From Candidatus Eiseniibacteriota bacterium (GTDB lineage: Bacteria > Eisenbacteria > RBG-16-71-46 > JABDJR01 > JAWXBZ01): a DNA stretch of 30,073 nucleotides. A program made the position numbers and the translations under genes. Position 1 is the first letter of the stretch. The number at the start of each line of letters is the position of its first letter. The stretch lies in NCBI GenBank assembly GCA_034440375.1, contig JAWXBZ010000184.1, forward strand, positions 1-30,073. Direction: 5' to 3'. The notes beneath the pieces were generated by a model that ran no database searches, was not told the origin of the DNA, and saw only the letters and a program-made list of their open reading frames with translations. Below, piece after piece: positions 2,335 through 30,073 of this stretch.

Positions 2335-4152
2335 TCAGTCGATTTTCTTCTGTTCCTCGGTCAGGCGCTTGAGCAGAGCCTCGGCGGTCCGCCGAAGCTG
2401 GGGATTGCCTGACCCCTCGGGCGCCCGTTTAATCTCCTCGAGCGTTTGATTCAATTCCTCGATGGCTTTCATTCGCTGGTTGTTCGACGCATACAGAACG
2501 GCCCGGTGGTAGCGGATTTCGGCCACGTCCGAGAGGCCGATCTTCGCGGCCAGTGCCAGCGAGCCGTTCAGCGTTGCCTCGGCGTCGTCGTAGCGCTTCA
2601 TGCGTACCTGGACCCAGCCAAGCGTGTCCTGAAATCCCGGATTATCGGGCGAGGCGGCGTTGGCCTTCCGGGCCAGTTCGAGCCCACGCTGCAGATTTTC
2701 GCCGGCGTCGGCGAACGCCATCGCCAGGTTGTTCATGTAGGAGGCATTGTCCGGTTCCTGCGTCACCAGGTGCTCTCCCACCACGATGCCATCGCGATAT
2801 TCACGGCTGGCCATCAGCACGAGGAATGCCACTTCAAACAATTGAGCCTGGTTGATCGAGTCGGCGGGCATGCTGGCGAAGACGCTGTCGGCCCGGATGG
2901 CGGCACGAAAACGGGCCGCGGCGGAATCGGGTTCATCGAGCCTGAGCCAGCCGACACCCACCCGAATCAGGACCGCCGGCGATTTGGGCTTGATGTCGAG
3001 AAAGTCCTCGAAGTGATCCAGCGATTCTTTCCAGCGTCCCTGCTGATCGGCCACCAGGCCGAGGCCCAGGCTGGCCGCCGGGTGCTTCGGATTGGCTGCC
3101 CGGCAGTCTTCGAAGCTCTTGCCGGCCTCATCCCACCGGTGCAGGCGGACGAAATGTTCACCAATCTGGCAGGGGAGATCGGGATCCGTCGACCCGTCCG
3201 CGATGGCCTGCTCGAGATACTTCAGCGCCACCTCGTCATGAACTCCAACCTGGGCCAGCGCCAGTCCGACCATGCGCGCCGCCTCGCCCCGATAGAGGTG
3301 TTGCTCCGCCACGGGCAGGAGATGCTCCAGTGCCGGTTGCCAGTGTCGCAGCTCGAAGAGCAGCGAGCCGATGTAATAGCGGACATCGGGGTCGGTCGGA
3401 TCGGCTTCCTCGATCGGCTGCAAATAGGAAAGCGCCTCGGCGTACTTCTCCTCCTCGAACAACGCGATGCCGTAGTACTTGCGAAAGGCGGTGATGGTCG
3501 AATCGGCGTTCAGACACTGCCGGAACCGGGCGGCGGCCTCGAATGGACGCCCCTCGGCCAGGTCGAGCCGCCCCATGTAAAAAGTGCGCTCCGGCTCGGG
3601 CGCTTCGTCTGCCAGACGCCGTGTCAGCTGGCCAAGACGCTCACGCACCACGGCACTGGTATCCGACAGTTCGAAGGCGATTCGGAGGTAGTTCTCGGCG
3701 AGTCGATCCTGGCGGCTGGATTCCGCCGCTCTTGCAAGTCCAAGGTAGCGCCGCCATTCATCGGGAGCCAACCGTCGAACGCTGGCCAGCGCCCGCGGCT
3801 GGCGCGGGTTCTCCTCCAGAAGGCGCCGGTACAGAGCCAGGGACACCTCCCGCAGCGAATCGGGGTCGGCACCTTCGATTTTTCCCCAGGCCTGCCACGT
3901 TTCCGCGAGGCGTTCGAGCGCCTCCTCGTCATCGGGATCGGCCTTGAGGAGAGCTTCGAGGTGCGAGACCGCGGTCGGAAAGTCGCGCTGCCGCAGCGCA
4001 ATGTCGGCCTCGAACAGGAGGATGTCGCGACGGGCGCTGGAAGTGGCTTCCGGTTCCGCGGCCGCGGCGGGAATGGCGGGGGTCAAGCCGGCCAGGAACA
4101 GGGCCAACACGATGATTGCGGAGCCAATTGCCCCGGGTCGACGAGGTGACAT
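2335..4152 (-). CDS. Secreted tetratricopeptide repeat protein
   Basis: Signal peptide (IIVLALFLAGLTPAIPAAAA), many TPR-like helical repeats, and the C-terminal NNLAM...DTLGWV pattern typical of TPR proteins. Confidence 0.85.
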   Translation of the reverse strand: MSPRRPGAIGSAIIVLALFLAGLTPAIPAAAAEPEATSSARRDILLFEADIALRQRDFPTAVSHLEALLKADPDDEEALERLAETWQAWGKIEGADPDSLREVSLALYRRLLEENPRQPRALASVRRLAPDEWRRYLGLARAAESSRQDRLAENYLRIAFELSDTSAVVRERLGQLTRRLADEAPEPERTFYMGRLDLAEGRPFEAAARFRQCLNADSTITAFRKYYGIALFEEEKYAEALSYLQPIEEADPTDPDVRYYIGSLLFELRHWQPALEHLLPVAEQHLYRGEAARMVGLALAQVGVHDEVALKYLEQAIADGSTDPDLPCQIGEHFVRLHRWDEAGKSFEDCRAANPKHPAASLGLGLVADQQGRWKESLDHFEDFLDIKPKSPAVLIRVGVGWLRLDEPDSAAARFRAAIRADSVFASMPADSINQAQLFEVAFLVLMASREYRDGIVVGEHLVTQEPDNASYMNNLAMAFADAGENLQRGLELARKANAASPDNPGFQDTLGWVQVRMKRYDDAEATLNGSLALAAKIGLSDVAEIRYHRAVLYASNNQRMKAIEELNQTLEEIKRAPEGSGNPQLRRTAEALLKRLTEEQKKID

Positions 4153-4158
4153 CACGGA

Positions 4159-4183: not shown

Positions 4184-4768
4184 CTACGGCGCCGCGGCCT
4201 CGAGAATCATGTTCTTCAGCGTGGCGAAATTGGCCGGATTGGCCAGATCGTGGCTGGTGAGGTTGTACACGTCGACGATCCGGTTTTCCTCGTCCAGGAT
4301 GACGACATCGCGATAGGTGATTTCCCATGACTCCCAGGCCATCCACTCCGTCGTATCCTGAAGCCATGGAATCATCCGCCTGATCACGATGGTATCGTTC
4401 CCCGAGCCGTCATCAACGCTGGTGAGGCCCAGGATGGAGGCTGGCCGCTCGGTCGCATCGATTGCGTCAAGAAGCGTGTCGATCTCGGCCTGCATCCGGT
4501 TCAGGTAGCCAAACTGGCTACGACAGTAACCTCAGGTGGAGGAGCCGAAGTACCAGGCGGAGATCCTTTCCCGGTAATCGCGCGGCGACACCTCCGTATT
4601 GAAGGTGGCCGAGTTCGGATTCACGTCGGTGAGCGCAAAGTCGGGGACGATTCCCGGGGCCGGTCCGCCGTCATCGTCGCTTCCGCAGGCCCCGAGGGCC
4701 AGGGCGAAGGCGAGGGACAGCACCAAGAACGATACGCCGGGCGAGAGGCTTGAAAACCGCGTCATCAT
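4184..4768 (-). CDS. Predicted selenocysteine-containing redoxin (AhpC/TSA/TlpA-like thioredoxin fold) lipoprotein, 194 aa, with Sec79 encoded by in-frame TGA at 4534..4532
   Basis: ORFs 4532..4813 and 4184..4495 share a frame and are separated by one TGA. Read-through gives WYFGSST-U-GYC-RSQFGYLNRMQAE, a UxxC motif preceded by PDFALTD...VSPRDY. Lipobox LGAC (Cys28) and a downstream SECIS-like hairpin are present. Confidence 0.85.
4498..4531 (-). promoter_or_regulatory. Putative bacterial SECIS element
   Basis: mRNA after the UGA is GGUU-ACUGUC-GUAGCCA-GUU-UGGCUAC-CUG-AACC. This gives a perfect 7-bp upper stem, an apical loop beginning GU after a 17-nt spacer from UGA, and a GGUU/AACC lower stem. 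Confidence 0.7.
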
Positions 4769-4775
4769 GCTGAAA

Positions 4776-4806
4776 AGAATACCCCAGACCCCATGGGGAA
4801 CGTCAA
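4776..4806 (-). promoter_or_regulatory. Putative sigma70-type promoter for the selenoprotein gene: TTGACG-19 bp-TATTCT, 7 nt before ATG 4768
   Basis: Minus strand reads TTGACG TTCCCCATGGGGTCTGGGG TATTCT TTTCAGC ATG. Confidence 0.45.
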
Positions 4807-4875
4807 TGTCCATGCCCGCAGCGGGTCTCGATCCCGGTATCGGTGACGGGATTGTCGGTCCTTCTGAATCCCGCG

Positions 4876-6675
4876 CTACCGAAGCTGAATCAACGCTCCC
4901 GCCCCGGGCGGCACGTCCTTCAGAAAGAGCTCGCCGCTTCGCAGGGCATGGCGCGAACCGCTCAACAGGTCGATGGCGTCACGCTGGCGAATCTGGCCGA
5001 GGCTTCCGGGCATCGGAATGCGGGCGCTGAGCGGCTGATCACCGCGGTTGATGACGACGAGGAACATCTCGTCCGAGGTGCGTCGGAGAACGGCCCACGC
5101 CGATTTCAGCTGGAGGACGGTATCGAAACTGCCGCGGCGCAGTGACGCGTGTTCGCGCCGAATCTGGATCATCTCGCGCAGACGGCGGCGTTCGTTGGCT
5201 TCGAGTGGCACGAGGGCGTCGATGACCGGCACCCCTTCCGATGTCATCTGGAGCAGGAGGGCCAACCGTCGGCCGGGGTCATCGGTCCGATCGGTTGACG
5301 TGAGAGAATTCCAGGCGGTCCGCGTGAATGGCTCCGGCGTGTCGATCCGGACCCGGTCGAGTGATCGCGCCAGGTGCACCGCATCGTCGTCTTCGCCCGT
5401 GGTGAAGAGGCTGACCGCCCGACCGAACGCGGCGGTGTCGAGCGCGTCGACCAGTTCGCCGGTGATCCAGCGGACCGGTGCCTCCGCGCTGACGCCGATG
5501 ATCCACGCGGTCGGATCGAGTGCCTTCATCGTGGCGGCCATCGATAACCAGAATTCCCGGGGCTGATCGTCAAGATCGGGGAGATACCAGCCGTCCATCC
5601 GCGTCTGTGACCATAGATGGACCGGAGCCAGCATTTCCTCGACGACTTCGGGGTTCGAGCCGTTCCACGGCACGCTGCCCGTCGTGTCCGTCGTGGCAAC
5701 AGGTTGGCCGTCCGCGGTCTCAGGCAGCATGAAAAAAGATCGAAAGGCCGATTCCTCCTTCCACTCAACAGCATCCCTTACCCACGGGTGGGCGCGGCTG
5801 ATTCGCGCCAGCGGGAGCGTGCCGATGACCTTCATTTTTCGAGCATGCGCCCGTTCCACCAGCCGGCGGAACTGTGCCAGGTCGCCGAAGCGGGGATCGA
5901 CCGTCATGAGGTCGAGCACCGCCGCCGGGTCATCCGCCGCGGTGCGCACCAGTGACGACAGGATGAGCGTGGTCACTCCCAGGCTGTCGAGGGACGGGAG
6001 CCCATTGATGAGGCCGGCCAGGTCACCGCCCGGAGCGCCGTTTGCCGGGTCGTTGGACGGATCGCCGTTGGCGAAACGACTCACGTCGATGCGCATCGCC
6101 ACCGCATCACAAACCCAGCCCGGCACCAGGATGACCCGGTCCGAGATGGTCTTCGTCTTTTCCTCACGCCGAAACAGTTCCTCGAATCGGCCGACGCGGC
6201 TCTCGCGTGTCGTGGTCGAGTCGCGACCGCACCAGATGAGGCGGTCCCTGTCGTCCAGCCAGATACGATAGCCACGCCATCGGCTGAATTCGGGACCGAC
6301 ACGGGGATCGTCCGGAAGCGGGATGGTGAGCGCGCGAAACTCGATCGAGTCGAGGCGGGCCCATCGCGTGGCGTCGTGATCGCGGAAGCCTTCGAACCCC
6401 TGGTCGTCGAGCCGGTAGATGCGCACGCCGGCCTTGTCGATGGCGTCCCCCGCGCCAACCGCGAAGCGGAGGGACAGGAAACGAATCGCCGGGCTCTCGG
6501 CGGTGGCCCAGACCACCTGGTCCGGACCGTTGGGGTCATGGCGGAAGGAGCCGGGCGTCAGAACACCGTCACGCCCCAGCGCGGGCGTGCCAACGAAAAG
6601 CCACGACGTCAGGCTGATCCGGATGACGAGCATGGGGAAGACACGGCGCGTGGCCGGCCCCCATTGACGTGTCAT
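4876..6675 (-). CDS. Alpha-amylase family (GH13, neopullulanase/cyclomaltodextrinase-like) protein, apparently catalytically degenerate, with N-terminal signal-like segment
   Basis: RFANGDPSND, GGDLAGL...LDSLGVTTL, VDPRFGDLAQFRRLVERAHARKMKV and RREHASLRRG are GH13 hallmarks. ATG 6675 lies 4 nt after the rhodanese stop, and the track's longer start (7011) overlaps the rhodanese gene. Confidence 0.8.
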   Translation of the reverse strand: MTRQWGPATRRVFPMLVIRISLTSWLFVGTPALGRDGVLTPGSFRHDPNGPDQVVWATAESPAIRFLSLRFAVGAGDAIDKAGVRIYRLDDQGFEGFRDHDATRWARLDSIEFRALTIPLPDDPRVGPEFSRWRGYRIWLDDRDRLIWCGRDSTTTRESRVGRFEELFRREEKTKTISDRVILVPGWVCDAVAMRIDVSRFANGDPSNDPANGAPGGDLAGLINGLPSLDSLGVTTLILSSLVRTAADDPAAVLDLMTVDPRFGDLAQFRRLVERAHARKMKVIGTLPLARISRAHPWVRDAVEWKEESAFRSFFMLPETADGQPVATTDTTGSVPWNGSNPEVVEEMLAPVHLWSQTRMDGWYLPDLDDQPREFWLSMAATMKALDPTAWIIGVSAEAPVRWITGELVDALDTAAFGRAVSLFTTGEDDDAVHLARSLDRVRIDTPEPFTRTAWNSLTSTDRTDDPGRRLALLLQMTSEGVPVIDALVPLEANERRRLREMIQIRREHASLRRGSFDTVLQLKSAWAVLRRTSDEMFLVVINRGDQPLSARIPMPGSLGQIRQRDAIDLLSGSRHALRSGELFLKDVPPGAGALIQLR

Positions 6676-6679
6676 GCCA

Positions 6680-7048
6680 TCAAGCCTCCGAGGGGAGGTC
6701 GTTTTCCTTCCAGACCCGCCAGCCGCCGGCCATGGACAGGACGTTCTGGTAGCCCATCTTCTGGAGATTGTCCGCGGCGAGGGCCGATCGAAAGCCACCG
6801 CCACAATAGAGAATGATCTCGGTTCCGTGATCGGGGATTTTCTTCTCGATATCGCGTTCGATGACCCCCTTGCCGAGGTGGATGGCTCCCCGGATGTGTC
6901 CGCCCTCCCACTCGCTCTCCTCGCGGACATCAACCACACGGAACGGCGTCCCGGCGGCGTATCGAGCCATGACCTCATCCACCGTACACTCCCGAACGCG
7001 CGACTTGGCATCCTCCACCAGTTTGAGAAATCCGGCGTGATGTTGCAT
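6680..7048 (-). CDS. Single-domain rhodanese / sulfurtransferase
   Basis: DVREESEW..GHIRGAIH, active-site loop YCGGGFRS, and MAGGWRVW. Start is MQHHAGF at ATG 7048. Confidence 0.93.
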   Translation of the reverse strand: MQHHAGFLKLVEDAKSRVRECTVDEVMARYAAGTPFRVVDVREESEWEGGHIRGAIHLGKGVIERDIEKKIPDHGTEIILYCGGGFRSALAADNLQKMGYQNVLSMAGGWRVWKENDLPSEA

Positions 7049-16090: not shown

Positions 16091-18346
16091 ATGCCACTGA
16101 CCCCCGGAACCCGCCTCGGCTCATTCGAAATCGTCGCGCCGCTCGGCGCCGGCGGCATGGGTGAGGTCTACCGTGCCCGCGATACGAAGCTGGGGCGCGA
16201 GGTCGCCATCAAGGTGCTTTCCGAGACGTTCGCCGCCAGCCCGGAGCGGCTGGGGCGCTTTCGGCGGGAGGCCCAGACGCTCGCCACGCTGAACCATCCC
16301 AACATCGCGGCCGTGTATGGGCTGGAGGATATGGATGGCGTTCCGTACCTCGTACTGGAGCTCGTGGAAGGGGAGACGCTCTCGGCCCGGCTATCGCGGG
16401 GGGCGTTGCCACCGCGCGAGACGCTCGCACTCGGAGCCCAGGTCGCCGCCGCGATCGAAGCCGCGCATGCCGGCGACATCGTTCACCGTGATCTGAAGCC
16501 TGGCAACATCATGATCACGACGGCGGGGGTGGCCAAGGTGCTCGATTTCGGCCTGGCCAAGACCAACCCGGCTCTCGCCAGTGCGTCGGACTCGTCGCAG
16601 GCGGCCACGGAGCAGCTCGGCGCCACGGTGGCGGGGATGATCCTCGGCACGGCGGCCTACATGAGCCCCGAACAGGCGCGCGGCAAGCCCGTGGATCGGC
16701 GCAGTGACGTCTGGTCGTTCGGCTGCGTTTTGTTCGAATGCCTGGCCGGGGTGCCCGCGTTCACCGGTGAGACGGTGTCGGACCTGATTGCCCGCATCCT
16801 GGAACGGGAACCGGACTGGAGCGCACTGCCGGCGGGCACGCCGCCGCGGCTGCGCGAGCTCATTCGTCGCTGCCTTCGCAAGGACATGGAGGCACGGCCG
16901 CGCGACATCCGCGACGTCCGGCTCGAGATGGGCGAGATTGCCACCGGGGGCGCAGCCAACACGGCCACGCCGGAAAAGTCGATCGCCGTCCTCCCCTTCG
17001 AGAACCTGAGCAGCGCGGATGACGAGTACTTCGCCGACGGCGTCACCGACGAGATCATGAATGCGCTGTCGCATCTCGATGGGCTCCGCGTGGCGGCGCG
17101 CACCTCCTGCTTTGCCTTCAAGGGACGGCGCGAGGATCTGCGGTCCATCGGGGAGAAGCTCGACGTGACCACCATCCTCGAGGGGACCGTGCGTCGGGCC
17201 GGCTCACGCCTGCGCATCACCGTGCAGCTGGTCAACGCCGCCGACGGCTACCAGCTCTGGTCGGAACGCTACGATCGTGAGATGACTGACGTGTTCGAGC
17301 TCCAGGAGGAGATCGCCACCACCATCGCCACCCGCCTCCGGGGAACGTTGCGCGGCGAGGCCGAGCATGGCCGGGCCCGCTCCGGCACCAAGAACCTGGA
17401 GGCCTACGAGCTGCTGCTCAAGGGGCGCGCCCTCCAGAACCGGCGGGGACGATTCATCCCCGAGGCGATCGCCTGCTTCGAGAGGGCGATCGCGCTTGAC
17501 CCGAACTATGGACAGGCCATCGCCTGGCTCTCCGACTCGTATCGCCTGAAGGGGACGTTCGGCACGGCGCCCTTCGCCGAGGTGATGCCGAAAGCCAGGC
17601 AACTGGCCGAGCGGGCGCTGGCCATCGACTCCGGACTGGTCGAGGCCTGGGCCACGCTGGCGGCGGTCGAGGAGCAGTTCGAATGGAACACGGCGCGCGC
17701 CGAAGCCATGTGGGACCGCGCGATGGCGGCCGATCCTCGGCATGCCACCTCGCGGTCCCACCGGGCCCTGTGGGGTTTCATGCGCGGCGTCATATCGGCG
17801 GAAGCGGCCATTGCCGAGTCACGTCGAGCCATCCAGGACGACCCGTTGAGCGCCTGGATCCGCGCCGTTCACTCGCACCTGCTCGGGTCCATCGGCCGCC
17901 ACGAGGAGTCGATCACCGAAGCGGAGCGGGCGATCGAACTCGACGCCGATTCGTTCATGGCGCACTGGAACCGTATGCGGGGATATGCGTGGGCCGGTCA
18001 GTATCAGCGCGCCATCGATCTCGCGCCCTCGGTGATGGGAATCTCCGGCCGCCACCACTTTGTCCTCGGCACGCTGGCCTGGGTCTACGGCAAGGCGGGG
18101 AAGCCGGAGTTGGCGAGGGCCGTGTACGACGAATTGGAGGCGCGTTCGCGCCACGAGTTTCTATCGCCCTTCTGGCTGGCCGTGGCGGCATCGTCCGCCG
18201 GACTCCCGGACCGGGCCATCGAGCAGGTGGCGCGCTGCGTGGCCGAGCGCGACCCGCTGGTCTGCTGGGGACGGGCCGTCCCGTTCTGGGAGGCGATTCG
18301 GGCCCATCCGCGATTTGCCGAGATGACGCGCGAGGTCTGGGACTGA
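16091..18346 (+). CDS. Hanks-type Ser/Thr protein kinase with TolB-like N domain and TPR repeats
   Basis: LGAGGMGEVY, VAIK, HRDLKPGN, DFGLAK and YMSPEQ, followed by SIAVLPFENLS...YFADG...LWSERYDR and TPRs. Confidence 0.95.
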   Translation: MPLTPGTRLGSFEIVAPLGAGGMGEVYRARDTKLGREVAIKVLSETFAASPERLGRFRREAQTLATLNHPNIAAVYGLEDMDGVPYLVLELVEGETLSARLSRGALPPRETLALGAQVAAAIEAAHAGDIVHRDLKPGNIMITTAGVAKVLDFGLAKTNPALASASDSSQAATEQLGATVAGMILGTAAYMSPEQARGKPVDRRSDVWSFGCVLFECLAGVPAFTGETVSDLIARILEREPDWSALPAGTPPRLRELIRRCLRKDMEARPRDIRDVRLEMGEIATGGAANTATPEKSIAVLPFENLSSADDEYFADGVTDEIMNALSHLDGLRVAARTSCFAFKGRREDLRSIGEKLDVTTILEGTVRRAGSRLRITVQLVNAADGYQLWSERYDREMTDVFELQEEIATTIATRLRGTLRGEAEHGRARSGTKNLEAYELLLKGRALQNRRGRFIPEAIACFERAIALDPNYGQAIAWLSDSYRLKGTFGTAPFAEVMPKARQLAERALAIDSGLVEAWATLAAVEEQFEWNTARAEAMWDRAMAADPRHATSRSHRALWGFMRGVISAEAAIAESRRAIQDDPLSAWIRAVHSHLLGSIGRHEESITEAERAIELDADSFMAHWNRMRGYAWAGQYQRAIDLAPSVMGISGRHHFVLGTLAWVYGKAGKPELARAVYDELEARSRHEFLSPFWLAVAASSAGLPDRAIEQVARCVAERDPLVCWGRAVPFWEAIRAHPRFAEMTREVWD

Positions 18347-19990: not shown

Positions 19991-20773
19991 CTATAAACGA
20001 TGACGGATCGCCCAAAGATCGGCGAAGATCGGGCGGAACAGACTTTTCTTGAGGAACTCGACTCCCAGGGAACCACCGGTGCCCTGCTTGTTGCCGATGG
20101 TGCGCTCGACGATCTTGACGTGCCGGTATCGCCACTCCTGTAATCCTTCGTCGAAGTCAGTCATCAGCTCAAACAGGATAGCCAACTCGGGCGATGTCTT
20201 GTAAAGCCTGAGAATCTCCTCCTGCAACCCGGGGCTGGCTACCGCAGATTCGCTGACCGGCCGGGCACGAAGATCTGCGGGGATCGAGACGCCCCGGAGT
20301 TCAAGGAACAGATAGAACTTGTCGATCAGCGATGGCTCGTTCAACCGGCGCTCGGCGGAGGCAAAGGCCTGGGACTCCGGATCGCAGAAACGGAGCATGT
20401 CCGCTCGCTTGAACCCCAGGACGTACTCGAATTCACGGAACTGGCTGGACTGGAAGCCCGATGACGTCTCCAGGCGATCGCGGAAACTGGTGAACGACAT
20501 GGGCGTCATCGTTTCAAGGATGTCGAGCTGGCCGACCAGGGTCTTCATGATCGTTCGGTTGCGTTTCAGCGTGTGGATGGCGCCGAACAGGTCGCCGGCC
20601 TCGAAATCGCGGCCGATCTTGTCCATCTCATGCAGCAGCAGCTTGAACCAGAGTTCGTAGACCTGATGGATGACGATGAACAGGAGCTCGTCGTGTTCCG
20701 CCGGCTGGGAACGGGCCTCCTGGAGGGACAACAGATCGTCCAGATTCAAGTACTGCGCGTAAGTGAGCGGCAT
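19991..20773 (-). CDS. kynA: Tryptophan 2,3-dioxygenase
   Basis: YLNLDDLLSLQ, HDELLFIVIHQVYELWFK, SGFQSSQFRE and WRYRHVKIVERTIGNKQGTGGS. Confidence 0.95.
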   Translation of the reverse strand: MPLTYAQYLNLDDLLSLQEARSQPAEHDELLFIVIHQVYELWFKLLLHEMDKIGRDFEAGDLFGAIHTLKRNRTIMKTLVGQLDILETMTPMSFTSFRDRLETSSGFQSSQFREFEYVLGFKRADMLRFCDPESQAFASAERRLNEPSLIDKFYLFLELRGVSIPADLRARPVSESAVASPGLQEEILRLYKTSPELAILFELMTDFDEGLQEWRYRHVKIVERTIGNKQGTGGSLGVEFLKKSLFRPIFADLWAIRHRL

Positions 20774-20995
20774 GTCCCTATGCTACGTGACGAACGACCG
20801 GTCGGACAGGCCCGCCGGTTGCCCTGGGCCGGCCGGGTCAATCCCCCCCAACGGTCGGGCATTTTTCTTGCACCGAATCTCCGCCGTCCCTCTATCATCC
20901 CGGAGCCGGTTGGTTTGTTGAGACCGTGCCAGACCCCGCGGCCGCAGGGACTTGATCCGACGACGAACCGACGAAGTACCCACCGGGAGCGGCTC

Positions 20996-22762
20996 ATGAC
21001 CCGAACGCGCAGGACGTCTTTTTGCACGGCCCTGCTGGTCATAATGCACGTTGTGTTTGTCGCGGCGCCTGCCCTGGCCCTGCCCCATGCCTCGGCCCTG
21101 GTCGAGGGAGAGAGCTGGGTTCGCGGCCGCACCACGATTCATGTGGTGGCCCCCGACGACCCCCGACTTCTGCGAGCCATCGCGGCCATGGATGCGGCGA
21201 AGCGCTATGGCCACCCCCGGTCGGCGCGGGAACTTACGCCGGAACTTCTCGGCCGGGGTCGGGATGCCTCCGGCCGCCGGCTTGATTCGGTTCTGGCCGG
21301 CAAATCGACACCCACGGTGACAACCCCGCTGGGGTGGGCCCCCTTCAGCGGCGCGTTCCAGATCGACGAGGCGGCGCACCTGCTGCATCGCGCCATGGTC
21401 GGTCCGCGGTACGAGGAAATGTCCGGCGTCGTGACCGGCGGCTTGAGCGCGACGCTGACCTCGTTGCTCACGCCGCGACCCCTGCCGCCGCCACCGGGCG
21501 CCTGGGTCAACGAGGCGGCGCCTGACTGGGAAAACCTGACCCAGGAGGAGCTCGATACGCTGAACGACAACTACCAGGAGCGGCAGCAGCTCATCCGGCT
21601 CTGGTGGGTCGAGCGGATAGTCAATCATCAGACGCTGAACATGACCGACGCCATGGTGCTCTTCTGGCATGATCACTTCGCCACCGGCGCCGACGCGGTT
21701 TACTACCCCATGGCCATCTACGGACAGATCGAACTGCTGCATCAGCACGCGCTGGGCAACTTCAAGACACTGGCCACCGACATGTGCACCGACCCGGCCA
21801 TGCTGATCTGGCTGAACGGCAACTACAACACGAAGTATGATCCGAACGAGAACTTCGCCCGCGAGCTTCTCGAGCTGTTCACGATGGGGGAAGGGTCAGG
21901 CTACACGCAGGAAGATGTGGAGGAGGCGGCCCGCGCCTGCACCGGCTGGCGTACCGACGGGCGTGATGTCTTTTTCGTACCCAGCTGGTACGACAATACC
22001 AACAAGACCTTTCTCGGCCAGACCGGCAACTGGGACATGGCCGACCTGATCGACATCATCGGTCAGCAACCGGCCACCGCCGAGTATCTCTGTCGGAAGC
22101 TCTACAAGTACTTTCTTGATGACGAACCAGATCCGGCTGATGTGGCGATCCTGGCCACCACGATGCGAAACAATAATTACGCGATCGGGCCCGTGCTCTC
22201 CGGGATGCTCGGGAGCAATCACTTTTTCGATCCGACATTTCGGGGCAGCCTGGTCAAGGATGTCATCGACCTTTATGGCGGCCAGGTCCGCTCGCTGCAT
22301 GCCATCGGCTTCGATCCTCTGACCACCACCAACGACTACGAACGCTACTGGATCGACTGGCAAAGCTATGACCTGGGCCAGATGTTGACCATGCCGCCAA
22401 ACGTGGCCGGCTGGCCGGGACACCACAACTGGATCAACACGGCCACGCTGCCGCTGCGCAAGGAATACAGCGGCATGATCCTGTACGGAAACATGTGGGG
22501 ATGGCCGCTCGGATTCTCGGTTGATTCCATGGCCGAAGCGAACCGCTTTTCGAACCCGAACAACGCCGGGGCGCTGATCGACGATGTGGCGCTCCTCCTG
22601 CTCGGCGGCCCGCCGACGACGGCCGTCCGCCAGGAGATGCTCGATGCACTGCTCCAGGGGTCGCAACCGAACCAGTGGTCGCTGGCCATGCCCGGCGCCG
22701 CCAATCGCATCCGTGATGTGCTGCATTTCACGATGCGGCTGCCCGACTACCAGCTGAAGTGA
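20996..22762 (+). CDS. DUF1800 domain protein with N-terminal signal-like segment
   Basis: AAHLLHRA, LFWHDHFAT, ALGNF, DPAMLIWLN, NENFARELLELFTMG and PPNVAGW. ATG 20996 follows GGGAG. Confidence 0.9.
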   Translation: MTRTRRTSFCTALLVIMHVVFVAAPALALPHASALVEGESWVRGRTTIHVVAPDDPRLLRAIAAMDAAKRYGHPRSARELTPELLGRGRDASGRRLDSVLAGKSTPTVTTPLGWAPFSGAFQIDEAAHLLHRAMVGPRYEEMSGVVTGGLSATLTSLLTPRPLPPPPGAWVNEAAPDWENLTQEELDTLNDNYQERQQLIRLWWVERIVNHQTLNMTDAMVLFWHDHFATGADAVYYPMAIYGQIELLHQHALGNFKTLATDMCTDPAMLIWLNGNYNTKYDPNENFARELLELFTMGEGSGYTQEDVEEAARACTGWRTDGRDVFFVPSWYDNTNKTFLGQTGNWDMADLIDIIGQQPATAEYLCRKLYKYFLDDEPDPADVAILATTMRNNNYAIGPVLSGMLGSNHFFDPTFRGSLVKDVIDLYGGQVRSLHAIGFDPLTTTNDYERYWIDWQSYDLGQMLTMPPNVAGWPGHHNWINTATLPLRKEYSGMILYGNMWGWPLGFSVDSMAEANRFSNPNNAGALIDDVALLLLGGPPTTAVRQEMLDALLQGSQPNQWSLAMPGAANRIRDVLHFTMRLPDYQLK

Positions 22763-22772
22763 GGTGCCCGGG

Positions 22773-24296
22773 ATGAAGCGACGCCAATTTCTGAACCGCA
22801 TGTCGGGTGTCCTTTCGGGGAGCCTGCTCGGGAAGTCGATCTGGTGGCCCCTGACGCGCGAGGCATTGGCCGGGACACCGTCGAATGACCAGCGAATCAT
22901 GGTCATGATCGTGCTGCAGGGCGGCAACGACGGATTGAATACCGTCATCCCCGTGGCGGATCCACTCTATTACTCAAAGCGGCCGACGTTGGCCGTGCCG
23001 CAGGCGTCCGCGCTCGGCGTCGGGCCGGGCGTCGGGTTGCACCCGAACCTGGCACCGCTCATGGATGTGTGGGACACCGGACGAATGGCCATCGTCCGGG
23101 ACGTGGGCTACAACGACATGAACCTCTCGCACTTCCGCGCCACCGACATCATGTTCTCGGGCTCGAGTTCGAACGGCGTCATCCAGACCGGCTGGCTTGG
23201 CCGGTGGCTGGAAGCCAACAATCCCACCTTTCCGGCAGTTTTGCCGCCGGACCCGCTGGCATTGCAGCAGGGCCTCTCCGCCGGATTGCTGCTCCAGGGC
23301 GATCGGGGCGTCACCGGCGTCGTCGTCAATGACCCCGGAAGTTTCTACTGGCTGGTAAACAGCAACTACACTGGTCCATTCAACGATGCGACCCCTGCCA
23401 CACGCGGCGGGGGGGAACTTGATTTCGTGCGGCAGATCGACCGCGCATCCTTCGAGTATGCCAATGCCATCGAAGTGGCCGCCGGCGCCGGCACCAACAA
23501 GGTGCCGTATCCGGTGAACAATGAACTGGGCGATCAGCTCAGCGTGGTGGCGCGCCTGATTGACGGTGGAATGTCGACGCCGGTTTACGTGACCAGCCTC
23601 GACGGATTCGACACCCATGCCTATCAACTCAACTCGCATCCCGAGTTGCTCTCGCAACTGGCCCAGGGCGTGGCGGCCTTCGTGGCGGATCTGCGGGCCA
23701 TGGGACGATTCCAGGACGTGCTCATCATGACCGTCAGCGAATTCGGGCGGCGGGTAGACGAGAACGGTCAGGATGGCACGGATCACGGCACATCGGCTCC
23801 CTGGTTCCTGATCTCGGACGGCATCGACGGCGGGCTGTACGGCGGCGCACCGGACCTCGGCACCCTCGACGACAACGGCAATATCGCGATGCAGTTCGAC
23901 TATCGCTCGATTTACTCGTCGGTCCTGACCGGATGGTTCGGCACCGACCCGGCCACCACGACGCAGGTCCTCCAGGGGAGCTTCCCGATGCTCCCATTCA
24001 TGACACAGGTCGGGGTGCCCGACTGGGGTGGCGCGCCGCGCACGCGACTCCTGCCGCCCACGCCAAATCCGGGGCGTGGCCCCCGGACCATCCGGTTCGA
24101 CCTGGCCCGGGCCAGCCGGGCGCGGGTGTCGGTCTTCGATGTCAGCGGCCGGATGGTCGCCATGGTGGCCGAGGGAACATGGCCGGCGGGATCGAATGAA
24201 ATCCGCTGGGAAGGGGCGGGCATCGCACCCGGCCTTTATTTCATCTCCCTTGACGCCGAGGGCGTGCGGCAGACCCAAAAGTTGATCCAGCAGTAG
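22773..24296 (+). CDS. DUF1501 domain protein with Tat signal and C-terminal FlgD/T9SS-like Ig domain
   Basis: MKRRQFL twin-arginine motif, GGNDGLNTVIP, SHFRATD, GFDTH, SEFGRRV.EN...GTDHG, and C-terminal PNP...FDVSGRMV...GLYF. Confidence 0.9.
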   Translation: MKRRQFLNRMSGVLSGSLLGKSIWWPLTREALAGTPSNDQRIMVMIVLQGGNDGLNTVIPVADPLYYSKRPTLAVPQASALGVGPGVGLHPNLAPLMDVWDTGRMAIVRDVGYNDMNLSHFRATDIMFSGSSSNGVIQTGWLGRWLEANNPTFPAVLPPDPLALQQGLSAGLLLQGDRGVTGVVVNDPGSFYWLVNSNYTGPFNDATPATRGGGELDFVRQIDRASFEYANAIEVAAGAGTNKVPYPVNNELGDQLSVVARLIDGGMSTPVYVTSLDGFDTHAYQLNSHPELLSQLAQGVAAFVADLRAMGRFQDVLIMTVSEFGRRVDENGQDGTDHGTSAPWFLISDGIDGGLYGGAPDLGTLDDNGNIAMQFDYRSIYSSVLTGWFGTDPATTTQVLQGSFPMLPFMTQVGVPDWGGAPRTRLLPPTPNPGRGPRTIRFDLARASRARVSVFDVSGRMVAMVAEGTWPAGSNEIRWEGAGIAPGLYFISLDAEGVRQTQKLIQQ

Positions 24297-24397: not shown

Positions 24398-25159
24398 ATG
24401 CCCGGACAATTGCGGATCTGCGCCATCAGCGACCCAGGCAAGAAGCGCCCGGGAAATGAAGACTCATTCGAGTGGTGGCCAAGGGAGGCTGCCCTGGCCG
24501 AGGGCCGCGACACCATCCTCATGGTGTGTGACGGCATGGGTGGCGCCCAGGCCGGCGAACGCGCCAGCCATCTGGCCGTGCAGACGATCTTGAAAATATG
24601 GCGTGATGCGCCGGGCGGCGATCCCGAACTCATCTTGAAGACAGCGTTCGAGGCGGCCAACACGACCGTTCATGACGAGAGTCGCTCCGACCCGGCGCGG
24701 CGGGGGATGGGAACAACGGGCACCGCGGTCGTGATCAGCGGCACCGATCTGATCGTGGCCCATGTCGGCGACAGCCGGGCCTACCTGGCCAACGGCGAGC
24801 TGCTCACCCAGCTCACCAACGATCACTCGCTCGTGGCACACCTGGTCGAGCGGGGACAGATTACGGCGGAGGAGGCTCGCAGTGATCCCCGGCGCAACGT
24901 CGTCACCCGTTCGATCGGTGTCACGGCGGAGATCGAGGTCGACGTCCACCGGTTCGTCGATATCATGGTGCCCGGCTCGACGCTGCTGTTGTCGTCCGAC
25001 GGGCTTCACGGTGTCATTACCGACGAGGAAATCGGCCCGCTTCTTCAAATGACCGAGCTGGACCAGGCCGGCCAGAAGCTGATCGACGCCGCCAACGACA
25101 TGGGCGGGCCGGACAACATCACGGTGCTCCTGGCCCGGCGGTTGGCCAACGACGCATGA
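24398..25159 (+). CDS. PP2C-family Ser/Thr protein phosphatase (Stp1/PrpC-like)
   Basis: NEDS, VCDGMGG, GMGTT, HVGDSRAY, DHSLV, SDGL and GGPDNIT. Confidence 0.95.
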   Translation: MPGQLRICAISDPGKKRPGNEDSFEWWPREAALAEGRDTILMVCDGMGGAQAGERASHLAVQTILKIWRDAPGGDPELILKTAFEAANTTVHDESRSDPARRGMGTTGTAVVISGTDLIVAHVGDSRAYLANGELLTQLTNDHSLVAHLVERGQITAEEARSDPRRNVVTRSIGVTAEIEVDVHRFVDIMVPGSTLLLSSDGLHGVITDEEIGPLLQMTELDQAGQKLIDAANDMGGPDNITVLLARRLANDA

Positions 25160-26735: not shown

Positions 26736-29054
26736 ATGATGCCCCTTCGAACACGACTCCAAAAGGCCGGCCCGGCGCTATTCCTCTTCCTCCTGGCGTA
26801 CGCTTGCCCGGCGGTTGCCAATTCGCCCCCGGCCGCCCCGGTTTTCATCGAACCCGATCCATCGGATGTCGTTTCGGCGTTTGATCCGCACTTCAACCTC
26901 TTCCCATTCGCCGATCCCGATCCACTGGATCAACCCGCGCACTCCGATTGGGAAGTGTGGGACGACCTCCTGAACGTTCGCGTCTGGGCCGACCTGGCCG
27001 AGTCGGTCAGCGTCGAACATGTCCACCTGCGGGACGGCCTTCTGGAAGGGGCTTTGGCCGGGGAGAGCCACTTCGCGGCCAGCCGCGCCTATCGCGTGCG
27101 AGCCCGCTATGTCGACGACAGTGGCCAACCCAACGCTACCGGGGCCTGGAGCGCCTGGGTGCCCTTCACGACCGACTCACTCGACGCCGTGTTTCCGCTT
27201 CGCGTGCAGGATGTCCTGGCCGATACGACGCTGATCTTCCGCAAGGAGAACGGCGAACCTGTCGACCTGCCGGACGGTGGGACGCCGGCCACGCTCACCA
27301 TGCGAACATCCGCCGGCCGACTGCTGACCCTGACCGGCACGCCCGACAGTGCGTATGCCATCGACAATCCACTCATCCTGTTTGGTGACGAGCCGGTCCG
27401 GGTGGTCGTCCGGAGCGGGAGCGCGCCGCTGCTGCTGTCGAACACCACGCTCGAGTTCGCCAACCAGAATGCGGATCGCCGCTCCATCTACCTGCCTGTC
27501 CTCTACCTGGCCGCGAACGATTCGCTCCACTTCTGGGTCAGCGAGACCGGAGCCACCTGGTTCGGTTCGGCGACCCAGCCGAATCCGGTCTTCAACATGC
27601 CGGCGCGCGATGTGCCGGTTCCCTGGTTCCTGACCCGCGCCGGCGATCGGGTCGAGCGGGTGGCCTCCGGTTTTCATCTCCCGGTGAACCTGGCCTTCCT
27701 GCCGGACCCGGCGCCAGGATCCATGGATGCGCTGTTCTACGTGACCGAACTCTACGGACGCATCCGGGTTGTGACGCGGAACTACACGGTGATGACCCTG
27801 ATCGACGGACTCCTGAATTTCGATCCCGTGGGCGGATTTCCCGGTTCGGGTGAGATGGGTGTGAGTGGCATCGTTTACGATCCATCCCTTCGCTCACTCT
27901 TCGTGACGCATGTCTATGACTCGCTCGGAATCAAGTACAACCGGGTGATCCGGTTGGCGTTGTCGCCCGACCGGAAGAGCGTGACGGGTTACCTTCGCCT
28001 ATTTGAAGGGGTCCTGGCCTCGGCCAGCCACCAGATCAGCGCGGTGACCATCGGGCCGGACAACCATTTGTACGTCAACATCGGTGACGGCTTCGTCTCC
28101 TCCTCGGCCCAGAATCCAGGCGACCTTCGGGGCAAGATTCTGCGCATGACGAAATCCGGCGCCATTCCGTCCGATAACCCGTTTCCCGGCACCTATCTTT
28201 ATGCCATCGGATTTCGCAATCCGTTCGGCGCCGCCTGGCAACCGGAAACGGGACGTCTTTTCATCAGCGACAACGGCGACAACGCGAACGATCGCCTGGT
28301 GAAGGTCGTGCCGGGATCGAATTACGGCTGGTGCTGCGACATGACGCGTGGCGCCATCATCAACTTCACGCCGACGGTGGCCCCGGTGGCGCTGACCTTC
28401 CTGCCGCCCGGGATCCTCTCGGCCGGTTGGGAGAACCGCCTCTTCCTCAACTGGTCGGGGCCCGCCTATCGACCGGGGCCGTCGACGCGCGGCAAGCAGA
28501 TCTGGACCTACACGCTCAATGACACCGGCAAGGTCGTCTCCTCCGAGCGATTCCTCCGCTATGTCGGCAACGGCTACGCCACCTGCCTGGGCCTGGCGGT
28601 CGGGCCCGACGGACTTTACTTCTCCGACCTTTATGGCGAGGAAGGCTTCAACGAGGCCGGCGTCACGAACGCCAGCATCTACCGAATCCAGGCGGGGAAC
28701 GTGTCGAGCTTGCCGGTCGATCCACCGCCGGGGCTGCCGGTCGACCCGCCGGGAGGGAACCTGCCGCCGCGCATCCGGCTGACGGCGGCGCCGAATCCAT
28801 TCGGTTCGAGCGTCGATCTACACCTCGTGCTCACGGCCGACGTGGAGGGTGAGCTGTCGATCCTTGACGTGGCCGGACGGCTCGTCCGAAAGGGAGATGC
28901 CGGCCGCTGGCCGCAAGGCGACTCACGCTGGACCTGGGATGGCACCGACGATCGCGGTCGATCGGTGGCGGATGGCGTCTACTTCGCGCGGTTCACGACG
29001 ACGGCGGGAGAGCCGACGGCGATCAAGATCTTTCGCGCCGCCCGGATCCGCTGA
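26736..29054 (+). CDS. PQQ-dependent sugar dehydrogenase (GSDH-like beta-propeller) with N-terminal extension and C-terminal FlgD-like Ig domain
   Basis: GPDNHLYV.IGD...AQNP..LRGKILR...PSDNPF...AIGFRNPFG and NYGW, signal peptide, and C-terminal PNPF...DVAGRLVR...WDGTDDRGRSVADGVYF. TATAAT lies at 26719..26724. Confidence 0.88.
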   Translation: MMPLRTRLQKAGPALFLFLLAYACPAVANSPPAAPVFIEPDPSDVVSAFDPHFNLFPFADPDPLDQPAHSDWEVWDDLLNVRVWADLAESVSVEHVHLRDGLLEGALAGESHFAASRAYRVRARYVDDSGQPNATGAWSAWVPFTTDSLDAVFPLRVQDVLADTTLIFRKENGEPVDLPDGGTPATLTMRTSAGRLLTLTGTPDSAYAIDNPLILFGDEPVRVVVRSGSAPLLLSNTTLEFANQNADRRSIYLPVLYLAANDSLHFWVSETGATWFGSATQPNPVFNMPARDVPVPWFLTRAGDRVERVASGFHLPVNLAFLPDPAPGSMDALFYVTELYGRIRVVTRNYTVMTLIDGLLNFDPVGGFPGSGEMGVSGIVYDPSLRSLFVTHVYDSLGIKYNRVIRLALSPDRKSVTGYLRLFEGVLASASHQISAVTIGPDNHLYVNIGDGFVSSSAQNPGDLRGKILRMTKSGAIPSDNPFPGTYLYAIGFRNPFGAAWQPETGRLFISDNGDNANDRLVKVVPGSNYGWCCDMTRGAIINFTPTVAPVALTFLPPGILSAGWENRLFLNWSGPAYRPGPSTRGKQIWTYTLNDTGKVVSSERFLRYVGNGYATCLGLAVGPDGLYFSDLYGEEGFNEAGVTNASIYRIQAGNVSSLPVDPPPGLPVDPPGGNLPPRIRLTAAPNPFGSSVDLHLVLTADVEGELSILDVAGRLVRKGDAGRWPQGDSRWTWDGTDDRGRSVADGVYFARFTTTAGEPTAIKIFRAARIR

Positions 29055-29073: not shown

Positions 29074-29574
29074 TCAGTGCGGCTTCGGCGCCTGGAACGC
29101 CAGCCAGCGCAGCGACATCGAACCGACGCCCAGTTCCTCGCCGTCGGGCAAATCCTGCCAGGCCAGCTTGCCGGTGGCGGCGAGGCGCCGGCAGCTCCGA
29201 ACGCCATCCGGGCGGACCAGGATCCGGATGTTTCCCTCGTTGGAGGCGCCTTCCACCAGCCGCAGGCGACCGGGTGCCGCATCAACGAAGCCGAGCATCT
29301 CACCGGTGTCGCGCAGTTCGATCCAGCTCCGGGTGATGTTGTTCGGCAGATCGAGCTGCGCCCCGGAGAGCAGCAGGACGCCGCGGAGCATCGGCGGACC
29401 GTTCCAGGCGGGGGCTTCAGGCCAGGTCTGTTTTGGACAGGCGGCGCATTCCCGCTCGCCCGGGGCCAGGATGTGGCCGTTGTCGCACAGTTCGATCGGC
29501 GTGACCGGGCGTCCGCAGTTCAGGCAGGCGGCGGTCCAGGCGGCGTTGTCGGCGTAGCACGATTCGCACTTCAT
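29074..29574 (-). CDS. Zinc-ribbon protein with a degenerate FHA-like C-terminal region
   Basis: CESC...CLNC and CDNGH...CAAC metal-binding pairs, C-terminal LPDGEELGVG, and ATGA overlap with the upstream FHA gene. Confidence 0.7.
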   Translation of the reverse strand: MKCESCYADNAAWTAACLNCGRPVTPIELCDNGHILAPGERECAACPKQTWPEAPAWNGPPMLRGVLLLSGAQLDLPNNITRSWIELRDTGEMLGFVDAAPGRLRLVEGASNEGNIRILVRPDGVRSCRRLAATGKLAWQDLPDGEELGVGSMSLRWLAFQAPKPH

Positions 29575-30073
29575 CGGGTGGCTTCACCGGGGACGGGAAT
29601 GATCTCGACCTGGAACCGGTCGGTCTTTTCCTTCCAGTTCGGATCCTTGAAGGAGTTGTCGTCGAGGCCGAAGACGATCGAATCGGCTCCCTCGAAGGTG
29701 TGGACCTCGGGGGGCGCGCCACTGGCCCGGCGGGAGTGTCGCCGGGTCTTGACGAAATAGAGGCCGTTAGTCGAGAGATCTGTCACCCGGATGGTGCCGT
29801 CTTTGCCGATCCGGATGACGGCGTGTCGACGGGAGATGTGCGAGTAGTCGCTCGTGGCAGGGAAGAGGTGGTGGCCGGTCGGCGCCGCCGTCAGCTCGCC
29901 CTCCACCGGCACTTCCTCCGGCAGCGGGGCCTTGCCGACGAAGAAGACATCGGATTCCCGCATCGGGTACATGCGACCGAGCCGGGGATCGGGGAAGCCG
30001 CTCTTGGCATCGCCCATTTCGGAGTAGAAGACCAGGAACCCGACGACCGGGTTGAGTTCGGGCTCGGTCGCAT
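29571..30073 (-). CDS. FHA domain protein (5' end outside the window)
   Basis: FVGK...ISRRHA...DLSTNG FHA motifs. The frame stays open to the window edge and reads ATEPELNPVVGFLVFYSEM upstream of the track's start. Confidence 0.8.
   Translation of the reverse strand, partial: ATEPELNPVVGFLVFYSEMGDAKSGFPDPRLGRMYPMRESDVFFVGKAPLPEEVPVEGELTAAPTGHHLFPATSDYSHISRRHAVIRIGKDGTIRVTDLSTNGLYFVKTRRHSRRASGAPPEVHTFEGADSIVFGLDDNSFKDPNWKEKTDRFQVEIIPVPGEATR

Follow-up and report, generated by a model that had tools for sequence, protein, structure and literature searches.

A predicted thioredoxin-fold selenoprotein of the TUGYCR family, split at an in-frame TGA codon, in a Candidatus Eiseniibacteriota genome

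Thioredoxin-fold proteins with a UxxC motif are the commonest type of bacterial selenoprotein. A 2026 review of selenoproteins in prokaryotes lists several such families in its Table 1, among them entries under cd02966 ("thiol-disulfide isomerase-like") and PF08534 ("redoxin family") (PMC13188914). NCBIfam release 20.0 includes a curated model for one UxxC family, NF053656.1 (redoxin_TUGYCR, "TUGYCR motif thioredoxin fold (seleno)protein"). Here we describe a gene of the NF053656 family in contig JAWXBZ010000184.1 (assembly GCA_034440375.1) of a Candidatus Eiseniibacteriota bacterium; the whole stretch analysed, 30,073 nucleotides, is referred to below as the window. We consider it very probable that positions 4768..4184 of the minus strand encode a single 194-residue NF053656 selenoprotein that depends on a selenocysteine insertion sequence (SECIS) and has a TlpA-like fold, with the redox motif U79-G-Y-C82 at helix 1.

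The gene (4184..4768, minus strand) is one reading frame of 194 codons followed by a TAG stop (4186..4184), and a single TGA lies within it at 4534..4532 (t4534, g4533, a4532). Ordinary listing of open reading frames (ORFs) cuts it into two pieces on the same strand, 4813/4768..4532 (93 aa) and 4495..4184 (103 aa). When the TGA is read as selenocysteine (Sec, U) the product runs ...ISAWYFGSST-U-GYCRSQFGYLNRMQAE with no other stop, which places U at residue 79 in the context ...GSST-U-GYCRSQ and makes residues 78–83 T-U-G-Y-C-R. The TGA codon (4532..4534) thus supplies the first position of the U-G-Y-C redox motif, and the TGT codon at 4523..4525 supplies Cys82, the predicted resolving cysteine. 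A previous sequence-only reading of this DNA had claimed that the two small ORFs share one frame broken by a single TGA, and had drawn attention to several motifs in the translation. The frame and the 194-residue read-through were as it described, and each motif was found: PDFALTD...VSPRDY upstream of the TGA, LGAC at residues 25–28, and WEITYRD at residues 148–154 (nt 4327..4307). We read the two adjacent frames as one gene for a predicted thioredoxin-fold selenocysteine enzyme. We mildly favor the ATG at 4768 over that at 4813 as the start because a terminator-like hairpin with a T-rich tail (4798..4782, minus strand) precedes it. This hairpin sits between the upstream glycosidase-family gene and ATG 4768, 14 nt upstream of that ATG and inside the longer ORF from 4813; with one such site found against 0.6 expected, it is weak evidence.

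The read-through protein matched NF053656.1 with E = 4.5e-60 and 201.8 bits (cutoff 100), and residues 41–191 covered positions 1–146 of the 146-position model. By sequence, we classify the window gene as a new, divergent member of a family already curated as selenoproteins. The sequence-only reading had suspected a poorly described selenoprotein family: the assignment to a selenoprotein family holds, and the family is not undescribed, given a curated NCBIfam model bearing this exact motif. As a discovery the find is therefore not surprising, since the UxxC thioredoxin-fold type is the commonest and the family already has its model. We found no paper naming the TUGYCR family or NF053656, although supplementary tables of selenoproteome studies may use another name, and our literature search found no experimental work on the family.

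To compare the locus across genomes, we scanned GTDB at one genome per species with a five-sequence alignment as query and examined the best 80 loci of at least 139 relatives among at least 599 pattern matches. These loci came from Eisenbacteria, Krumholzibacteria, Planctomycetota, Myxococcota/Polyangia, Gemmatimonadota, and Latescibacterota, and had at most 54% identity to the window protein, whose closest relatives among them were Eisenbacteria metagenome-assembled genomes (MAGs). The codon at the residue-79 column was TGA in 75 of the 80 loci and a cysteine codon (TGC or TGT) in four (L048, L069, L070, and L071); in one (L076) the codon contained an N. Both halves flanking the codon were conserved throughout the 80 loci, with invariant residues on either side. 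Because both halves are conserved in this many loci with TGA or Cys at the column, the split frame is not a product of chance. Homologues with Cys or TGA at residue 79 and conservation on both sides were what the sequence-only reading had looked to for support, and these loci provide them.

The same column was followed in protein databases. Cysteine occupied it in 7 of the 14 full-length homologues that we aligned (14 of 48 matches), and among the 34 shorter homologues 28 ended exactly one residue before the column and five began after it. A search of 1.84 billion cluster representatives returned 1520 relatives at E ≤ 0.001, 272 at E ≤ 1e-10, and 17 at E ≤ 1e-30. Among 148 new representatives listed, 35 spanned the motif region (mostly CxxC by eye) and seven ended just before the column; the other 106 matched no pattern and, judging from their matched ranges, were mostly C-terminal halves.

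Four database homologues showed a different residue at the Sec column, Trp in P0002, P0068, and P0085 and Gly in P0012, while keeping C82 and R153. Such residues would be expected if TGA were reassigned genome-wide, to Trp under code 4 or to Gly under code 25, so that residue 79 of the window protein would be one of these. The window itself speaks against this: TGA is the stop of 11 of its 18 family-supported genes, and codon 79 is the sole internal TGA among them, the other 17 genes having none. In genomic DNA, moreover, the column pairs TGA with Cys and not with Trp or Gly. The W and G residues are most simply explained as translation under another code, and probably reflect gene callers applying code 4 or code 25 to TGA codons on short contigs. 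We regard genome-wide reassignment as scarcely credible.

Directly downstream of the TGA, codons 83–88 (R-S-Q-F-G-Y) contain a hairpin, GUAGCC-AGUUU-GGCUAC (4505..4521, minus strand), whose stem begins 10 nt after the UGA and whose apical loop (4515..4511) begins after 16 nt. Folded alone it had a free energy of -9.6 kcal/mol (z = -4.28), and none of 200 shuffled sequences folded as well. Published rules for bacterial SECIS elements (bSECIS), as given in one figure legend, call for a loop of 3–9 nt with G as its first or second nucleotide, a stem of 4–16 bp, a spacing of 16–37 nt, and a minimum free energy of at most -7.5 kcal/mol (PMC13188914, Fig. 2 legend). The window hairpin agrees with all four of these rules as stated there (AGUUU loop, 6 bp, 16 nt, -9.6 kcal/mol).

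Conservation of the hairpin was assessed in a gapless 57-nt alignment of 76 of the 77 TGA-bearing copies (74 distinct sequences; L052 was left out). The 6-bp helix was paired in 96.4% of cells and five of its six pairs showed two-sided changes, for example from U-A to A-U, G-U, or C-G at one pair and from G-C to C-G, U-A, or A-U at another. Pairing fell to between 23% and 47% when the 3' arm was shifted by one to three columns. None of 500 column shuffles attained the observed covariation score, in a control that does not remove phylogenetic relatedness. Several covarying pairs join a synonymous third position in codon 83 to a non-synonymous second position in codon 88, and are therefore not the product of protein selection alone. 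Among the 75 Sec copies from the loci, all six pairs formed in 62, five in 10, and four in three; their mean free energy was -9.15 kcal/mol, and 64 folded at or below -7.5 kcal/mol. The four Cys-form genes served as an internal control and lacked the hairpin, forming three of six pairs each, with equivalent segments at -2.3 to -4.7 kcal/mol. In three of these genes the glutamine codon is CAA, which takes away the loop G, whereas all 76 aligned Sec forms use CAG. The family consensus that emerges is a 6-bp stem with an AGUUY loop starting 16 nt after the UGA, and comparison of the sequences indicates that the hairpin at 4521..4505 is a conserved, covarying element of the bacterial SECIS type. 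A search of the window with Rfam at gathering thresholds gave no matches, including none for this hairpin. We rejected a candidate lower helix (alignment columns 12–15 with 45–48): it was 89.9% paired, but only one of its four pairs showed two-sided change, in two sequences, and its pairing is explained by the conserved Cys and Met-Gln codons.

The pairing of TGA with Cys, the conservation on both sides of the codon, and the covarying SECIS hairpin together support recoding of the TGA at 4534..4532 as Sec. They also bear on the simplest alternative, that the TGA is a real stop and the locus holds two independent small genes or one gene inactivated by a nonsense mutation. ORF listing does return two ORFs, TGA is the commonest stop in the window, and no Sec machinery was seen there. 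A true stop would nonetheless have to recur at the same position in 75 of 80 loci spread over several phyla, both halves being conserved, and to give way to a Cys codon in four; it would have to be followed by a covarying hairpin that is missing exactly in the Cys forms, and the two halves would have to form one thioredoxin fold and be spanned by one curated model. We consider a real stop highly improbable.

Several observations count against a working, Sec-inserting enzyme at this locus. Pfam and NCBIfam scans of the 30-kb window found no selA, selB, or selD, and ARAGORN found neither a tRNA in the window nor a tRNA-Sec in the flanks of the 80 loci. The limit noted above for the column-shuffle control belongs here too, and the 71-nt context around the TGA, unlike the local hairpin, was not more stable than its shuffles (z = -0.44). 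At the protein level, the thioredoxin-type Pfam families AhpC-TSA (16.5 bits against 26) and Redoxin (12.7 bits against 26.6) did not reach their gathering scores, the only other match being a sub-threshold one to TraF (17.8 bits), and a PDB sequence search with the family profile gave no match at E ≤ 1. The window copy also departs from the consensus of the 82 gene copies in our conservation set (81 from the loci plus the window). It has a five-residue insertion (LLDAI, residues 99–103; nt 4460..4474, minus strand) that is in none of the other 81 copies, and T116 (nt 4421..4423, minus strand) where 81 of the 82 copies have N. Model confidence falls near both features, and on its sequence this copy could be less active than typical members. 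The neighborhood of the gene was similarly uninformative. All-against-all BLAST of 3253 ORFs within 8 kb recovered no conserved neighbor, with no cluster in more than 10 loci, so the substrate and reductant are without genomic support. In one locus (L062, 11167..11263, plus strand), ARAGORN called an unusually long (97 nt) "tRNA-Trp (cca)" roughly 1 kb downstream of the gene; this call is probably false, as Rfam finds nothing there at E ≤ 0.1.

An AlphaFold2 (AF2) model built from a 15-sequence alignment had a mean pLDDT of 84.8 and a pTM of 0.76. Its elements are strands at 69–74, 110–116, 135–137, 154–158, and 163–169, helices at 80–102 and 178–192, and an extra N-terminal strand at 46–48. 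U79 stands at the N-terminus of the first long helix (80–102), the standard place of the CxxC nucleophile. Foldseek against the PDB ranked ResA, DsbE, and a disulfide isomerase of Bacteroides highest (E from 2e-9 to 1e-8, target-normalized TM up to 0.80). Below them came Etrx2, a thioredoxin that is a pneumococcal surface lipoprotein, Sco1/ScoI, and E. coli CcmG. In profile alignment with hhalign, residues 39–141 matched E. coli CcmG at a probability of 95.1% (E = 3.1e-8), with U79 and C82 falling on Cys80 and Cys83 of its C-P-T-C motif. The thioredoxin fold and the placing of U at the nucleophilic first position of CxxC, both proposed in the sequence-only reading, are borne out by these comparisons. 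AF2, Foldseek, and hhalign between them gave a thioredoxin fold with an N-terminal beta-hairpin extension and a redox pair at the start of helix 1, the TlpA-type arrangement, and by descent the protein belongs with the TlpA/CcmG-like redoxins, not with the peroxiredoxins.

Residues C82, Q85, F86, W148, R153, D154, D48, S53, P62, and R63 were invariant in all 82 copies; column 79 held 77 U, four C, and one masked residue, and T78 was present in 77, giving a motif A/S-T-U-G-Y-C. The codon of Arg153 is CGC at 4310..4312 (minus strand), directly before strand beta3 (154–158). The cis-Pro loop expected before this strand was not encountered: residues 149–153 read E-I-T-Y-R, with no Pro. When V-V-I-L-D-x-x-N is set manually on F-L-I-D-G-N-G of CcmG, R153 falls on the Pro of G-A-P-E-T, which we take to be the cis-Pro of that family (CcmG "GAPETFLID"). 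This register rests on secondary structure and manual alignment, the hhalign match having ended at residue 141, and the point counts against the structural part of our interpretation. With that register, Arg153 would stand where the cis-Pro normally lies, which agrees with the suggestion in the sequence-only reading that WEITYRD replaces the cis-Pro loop.

Database proteins gave a separate view of Arg153. Among 89 whole domains (120 partial domain matches were set aside), 65 had both Cys79 and Arg153, counting the window protein with C standing for U, and 16 had neither; five had Arg without Cys (three with W and one with G at the column) and three had Cys without Arg. Arg153 thus appears to belong to the active site, a suggestive association among mutually related domains.

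The domain also occurs in tandem. The 612-residue protein P0050 runs from immediately past one presumed TGA to immediately short of another; in its three inner domains the Sec column is occupied by Q or D and the Arg153 column by G or N. P0004, P0005, and P0007 each open with a non-redox domain, and the second domain behind it is cut at the Sec column; P0014 is also tandem. In locus L011 two adjacent Sec-bearing genes lie in different frames, around 10214 and 11053. As read from these sequences, tandem arrays appear to mix Sec-bearing and degenerate domains.

The invariant Arg invites a different account of the chemistry, in which the same selenoprotein would be peroxidase-like, with Sec79 as the periplasmic reductant of peroxides or sulfenic acids, Thr78 and Arg153 in the roles of the peroxiredoxin Thr and Arg, and Cys82 resolving the selenenic acid. 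The catalytic Arg of peroxiredoxins lies in a YRGxFIID-like strand, to which the YRDVVILD of the window protein is similar. Arg153 is kept in every copy at a position where TlpA-type reductases keep the cis-Pro, Thr78 accompanies it in nearly all, and the Arg is lost along with the redox residue in the 16 degenerate domains. In addition, AhpC-TSA was the only Pfam family matched by several members (6 of 15, best E = 1.1e-6). Against these points, hhalign gave E. coli AhpC a probability of 0.3%, where CcmG had 95.1%, and the 31 PDB matches listed, which reach down to rank 50, include no peroxiredoxin or glutathione peroxidase. The UxxC motif differs from the TxxC/TxxU that Table 1 of the review gives for peroxiredoxins (PMC13188914). 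We hold a peroxidase-like activity to be possible, if doubtful. A bolder proposal, that the protein represents a distinct class of exported selenoenzyme with a catalytic Arg in place of the cis-Pro acting with Thr78 and Sec79, a periplasmic lipid-anchored selenoperoxidase or sulfenic-acid reductase and not a classical disulfide reductase, seems unlikely to us. If it were true, the class would have a wide distribution across Eisenbacteria, Krumholzibacteria, Planctomycetota, Myxococcota, and Gemmatimonadota, sometimes in tandem with degenerate non-redox copies.

A copper-binding role was also weighed, in which the U/C pair would bind copper for oxidases as in a Sco-like metallochaperone and carry out no thiol-disulfide exchange. 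Sco1/ScoI folds were among the Foldseek matches, at ranks 27–50 with E of about 1e-7, but they ranked below ResA, DsbE, and Etrx. No cytochrome oxidase or copper genes recurred near the loci. Sco proteins have CxxxC and a distal His, whereas the UxxC spacing is invariant in the TUGYCR family. We judge the metallochaperone role very improbable.

The N-terminus suggests export of the protein. It reads MMTRF-SSLSPGVSFLVLSLAFALA-LGAC-GSDDD, with a putative signal peptide (4685..4768, minus strand) that has a lipobox-like L-G-A-C at residues 25–28, and the whole segment (MMTRF...LAFALA-LGAC-GSDDD) fits the lipobox pattern. Cys28 (codon 4687..4685) would be the lipidated first residue of the mature protein. 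At least 33 of the 82 family copies have the strict lipobox pattern after a hydrophobic run. In most Eisenbacteria and Krumholzibacteria homologues x-G-C-(G/K/S)-D-D comes after the same hydrophobic stretch, and in Myxococcota members a similar Cys leads into long low-complexity linkers. Planctomycete members differ at the N-terminus and carry C-terminal extensions, with matches to dockerin and PEP-CTERM. The window protein is thus probably exported and lipid-anchored, as the sequence-only reading had it from the same LGAC; for us as well the case is one of sequence pattern.

Taken together, these features outline how the protein might be made and might act. By analogy with the established E. 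coli fdhF system, SelB-GTP carrying Sec-tRNA(Sec) would bind the hairpin as the ribosome reaches UGA79, and Sec would be inserted. The signal peptide would then direct export, and the protein would be anchored by lipid at Cys28. Outside the cytoplasm, the Sec79 selenolate would attack an oxidized substrate (a protein disulfide, or else a sulfenic acid or peroxide), and the resulting adduct would be resolved by Cys82 as an Se-S bond (selenenylsulfide). By analogy with TlpA, ResA, CcmG, and Etrx, the enzyme could be re-reduced by a CcdA/DsbD-type thiol electron carrier in the membrane, and the invariant Arg153 together with Thr78 would form part of the active site. Under this scheme we lean, if only slightly, toward a role as a disulfide or sulfenate reductase.

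The genes around the selenoprotein varied among loci. The largest neighbor cluster (10 loci) consisted of Ser/Thr kinases scattered in position and strand, and no Pfam family recurred among the closest downstream ORFs on the same strand in 61 related loci. At one of the 61, a Myxococcota locus (L023, 10913..11662, plus strand), the next same-strand ORF is an MsrA with an N-terminal extension, a pairing that would fit an Etrx-like role of the redoxin. In the window, the selenoprotein stop is followed 28 nt later by the start of a TPR-repeat protein with an N-terminal signal-like segment (2335..4155, minus strand), which may be co-transcribed with the selenoprotein gene and is not a conserved neighbor. 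On the other side, family scans identified a glycoside-hydrolase-13-like gene (4876..7011). Farther away are a DUF1800/DUF1501 gene pair (20573..24296, plus strand), whose DUF1501 member has a T9SS Por_Secre_tail sorting domain at its C-terminal end, and a glucose/sorbosone dehydrogenase-like protein with an FlgD Ig-like C-terminal domain (26736..29054, plus strand). Taken with the Eisenbacteria MAGs that hold the nearest selenoprotein relatives, these genes hint that the host belongs to the FCB group. The window also encodes a Ser/Thr kinase with TPR (16091..18346, plus strand), a Stp1-type PP2C phosphatase (24398..25159, plus strand), and an FHA-domain protein (29571..30071, minus strand), a set that is ordinary eukaryote-like signaling and unrelated to the selenoprotein.

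The locus is one more selenoprotein cut in two by ordinary gene callers and a good annotation catch, and the gene implies that its host uses selenocysteine; its genome would then encode the Sec machinery, as the sequence-only reading proposed. Most relatives are kept as halves in public protein sets, so the family is easily overlooked. Our comparison adds a well-supported SECIS consensus for the TUGYCR family. As a probably exported family, common in little-studied phyla and with an invariant Arg for the cis-Pro, it is a fair target for first biochemistry.

Set beside known systems, the window protein resembles the peroxiredoxins (AhpC/TSA) in having a conserved Arg where the strand following the active-site loop begins, a Thr beside the redox residue, and a weak AhpC-TSA match; it differs in having no PxxxTxxC motif, in the negligible hhalign probability for AhpC, and in staying under the Pfam gathering score. 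With the TlpA/ResA/CcmG(DsbE) group (cd02966-like, including Etrx2) it shares the fold, the redox pair, the PDFxLxD N-terminal strand, and probably export or membrane anchoring. It differs from that group in having Sec for the nucleophilic Cys and Arg153 for the cis-Pro, and it falls under the Pfam cutoffs of these families. The UxxC entries in Table 1 of the review likewise have UxxC on a thioredoxin-type fold; NF053656 is not listed in the passages of that source covered here, and one of its entries may correspond to the same family (PMC13188914). The window protein is below the Pfam cutoffs for PF00578 and PF08534. The closest agreement is with NF053656 itself, where the window protein has the exact T-U-G-Y-C-R motif and a full-length match far over the cutoff. 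None of its differences places it outside that family, and with its insertion at 99–103 and T116 for N it reads as a divergent member.

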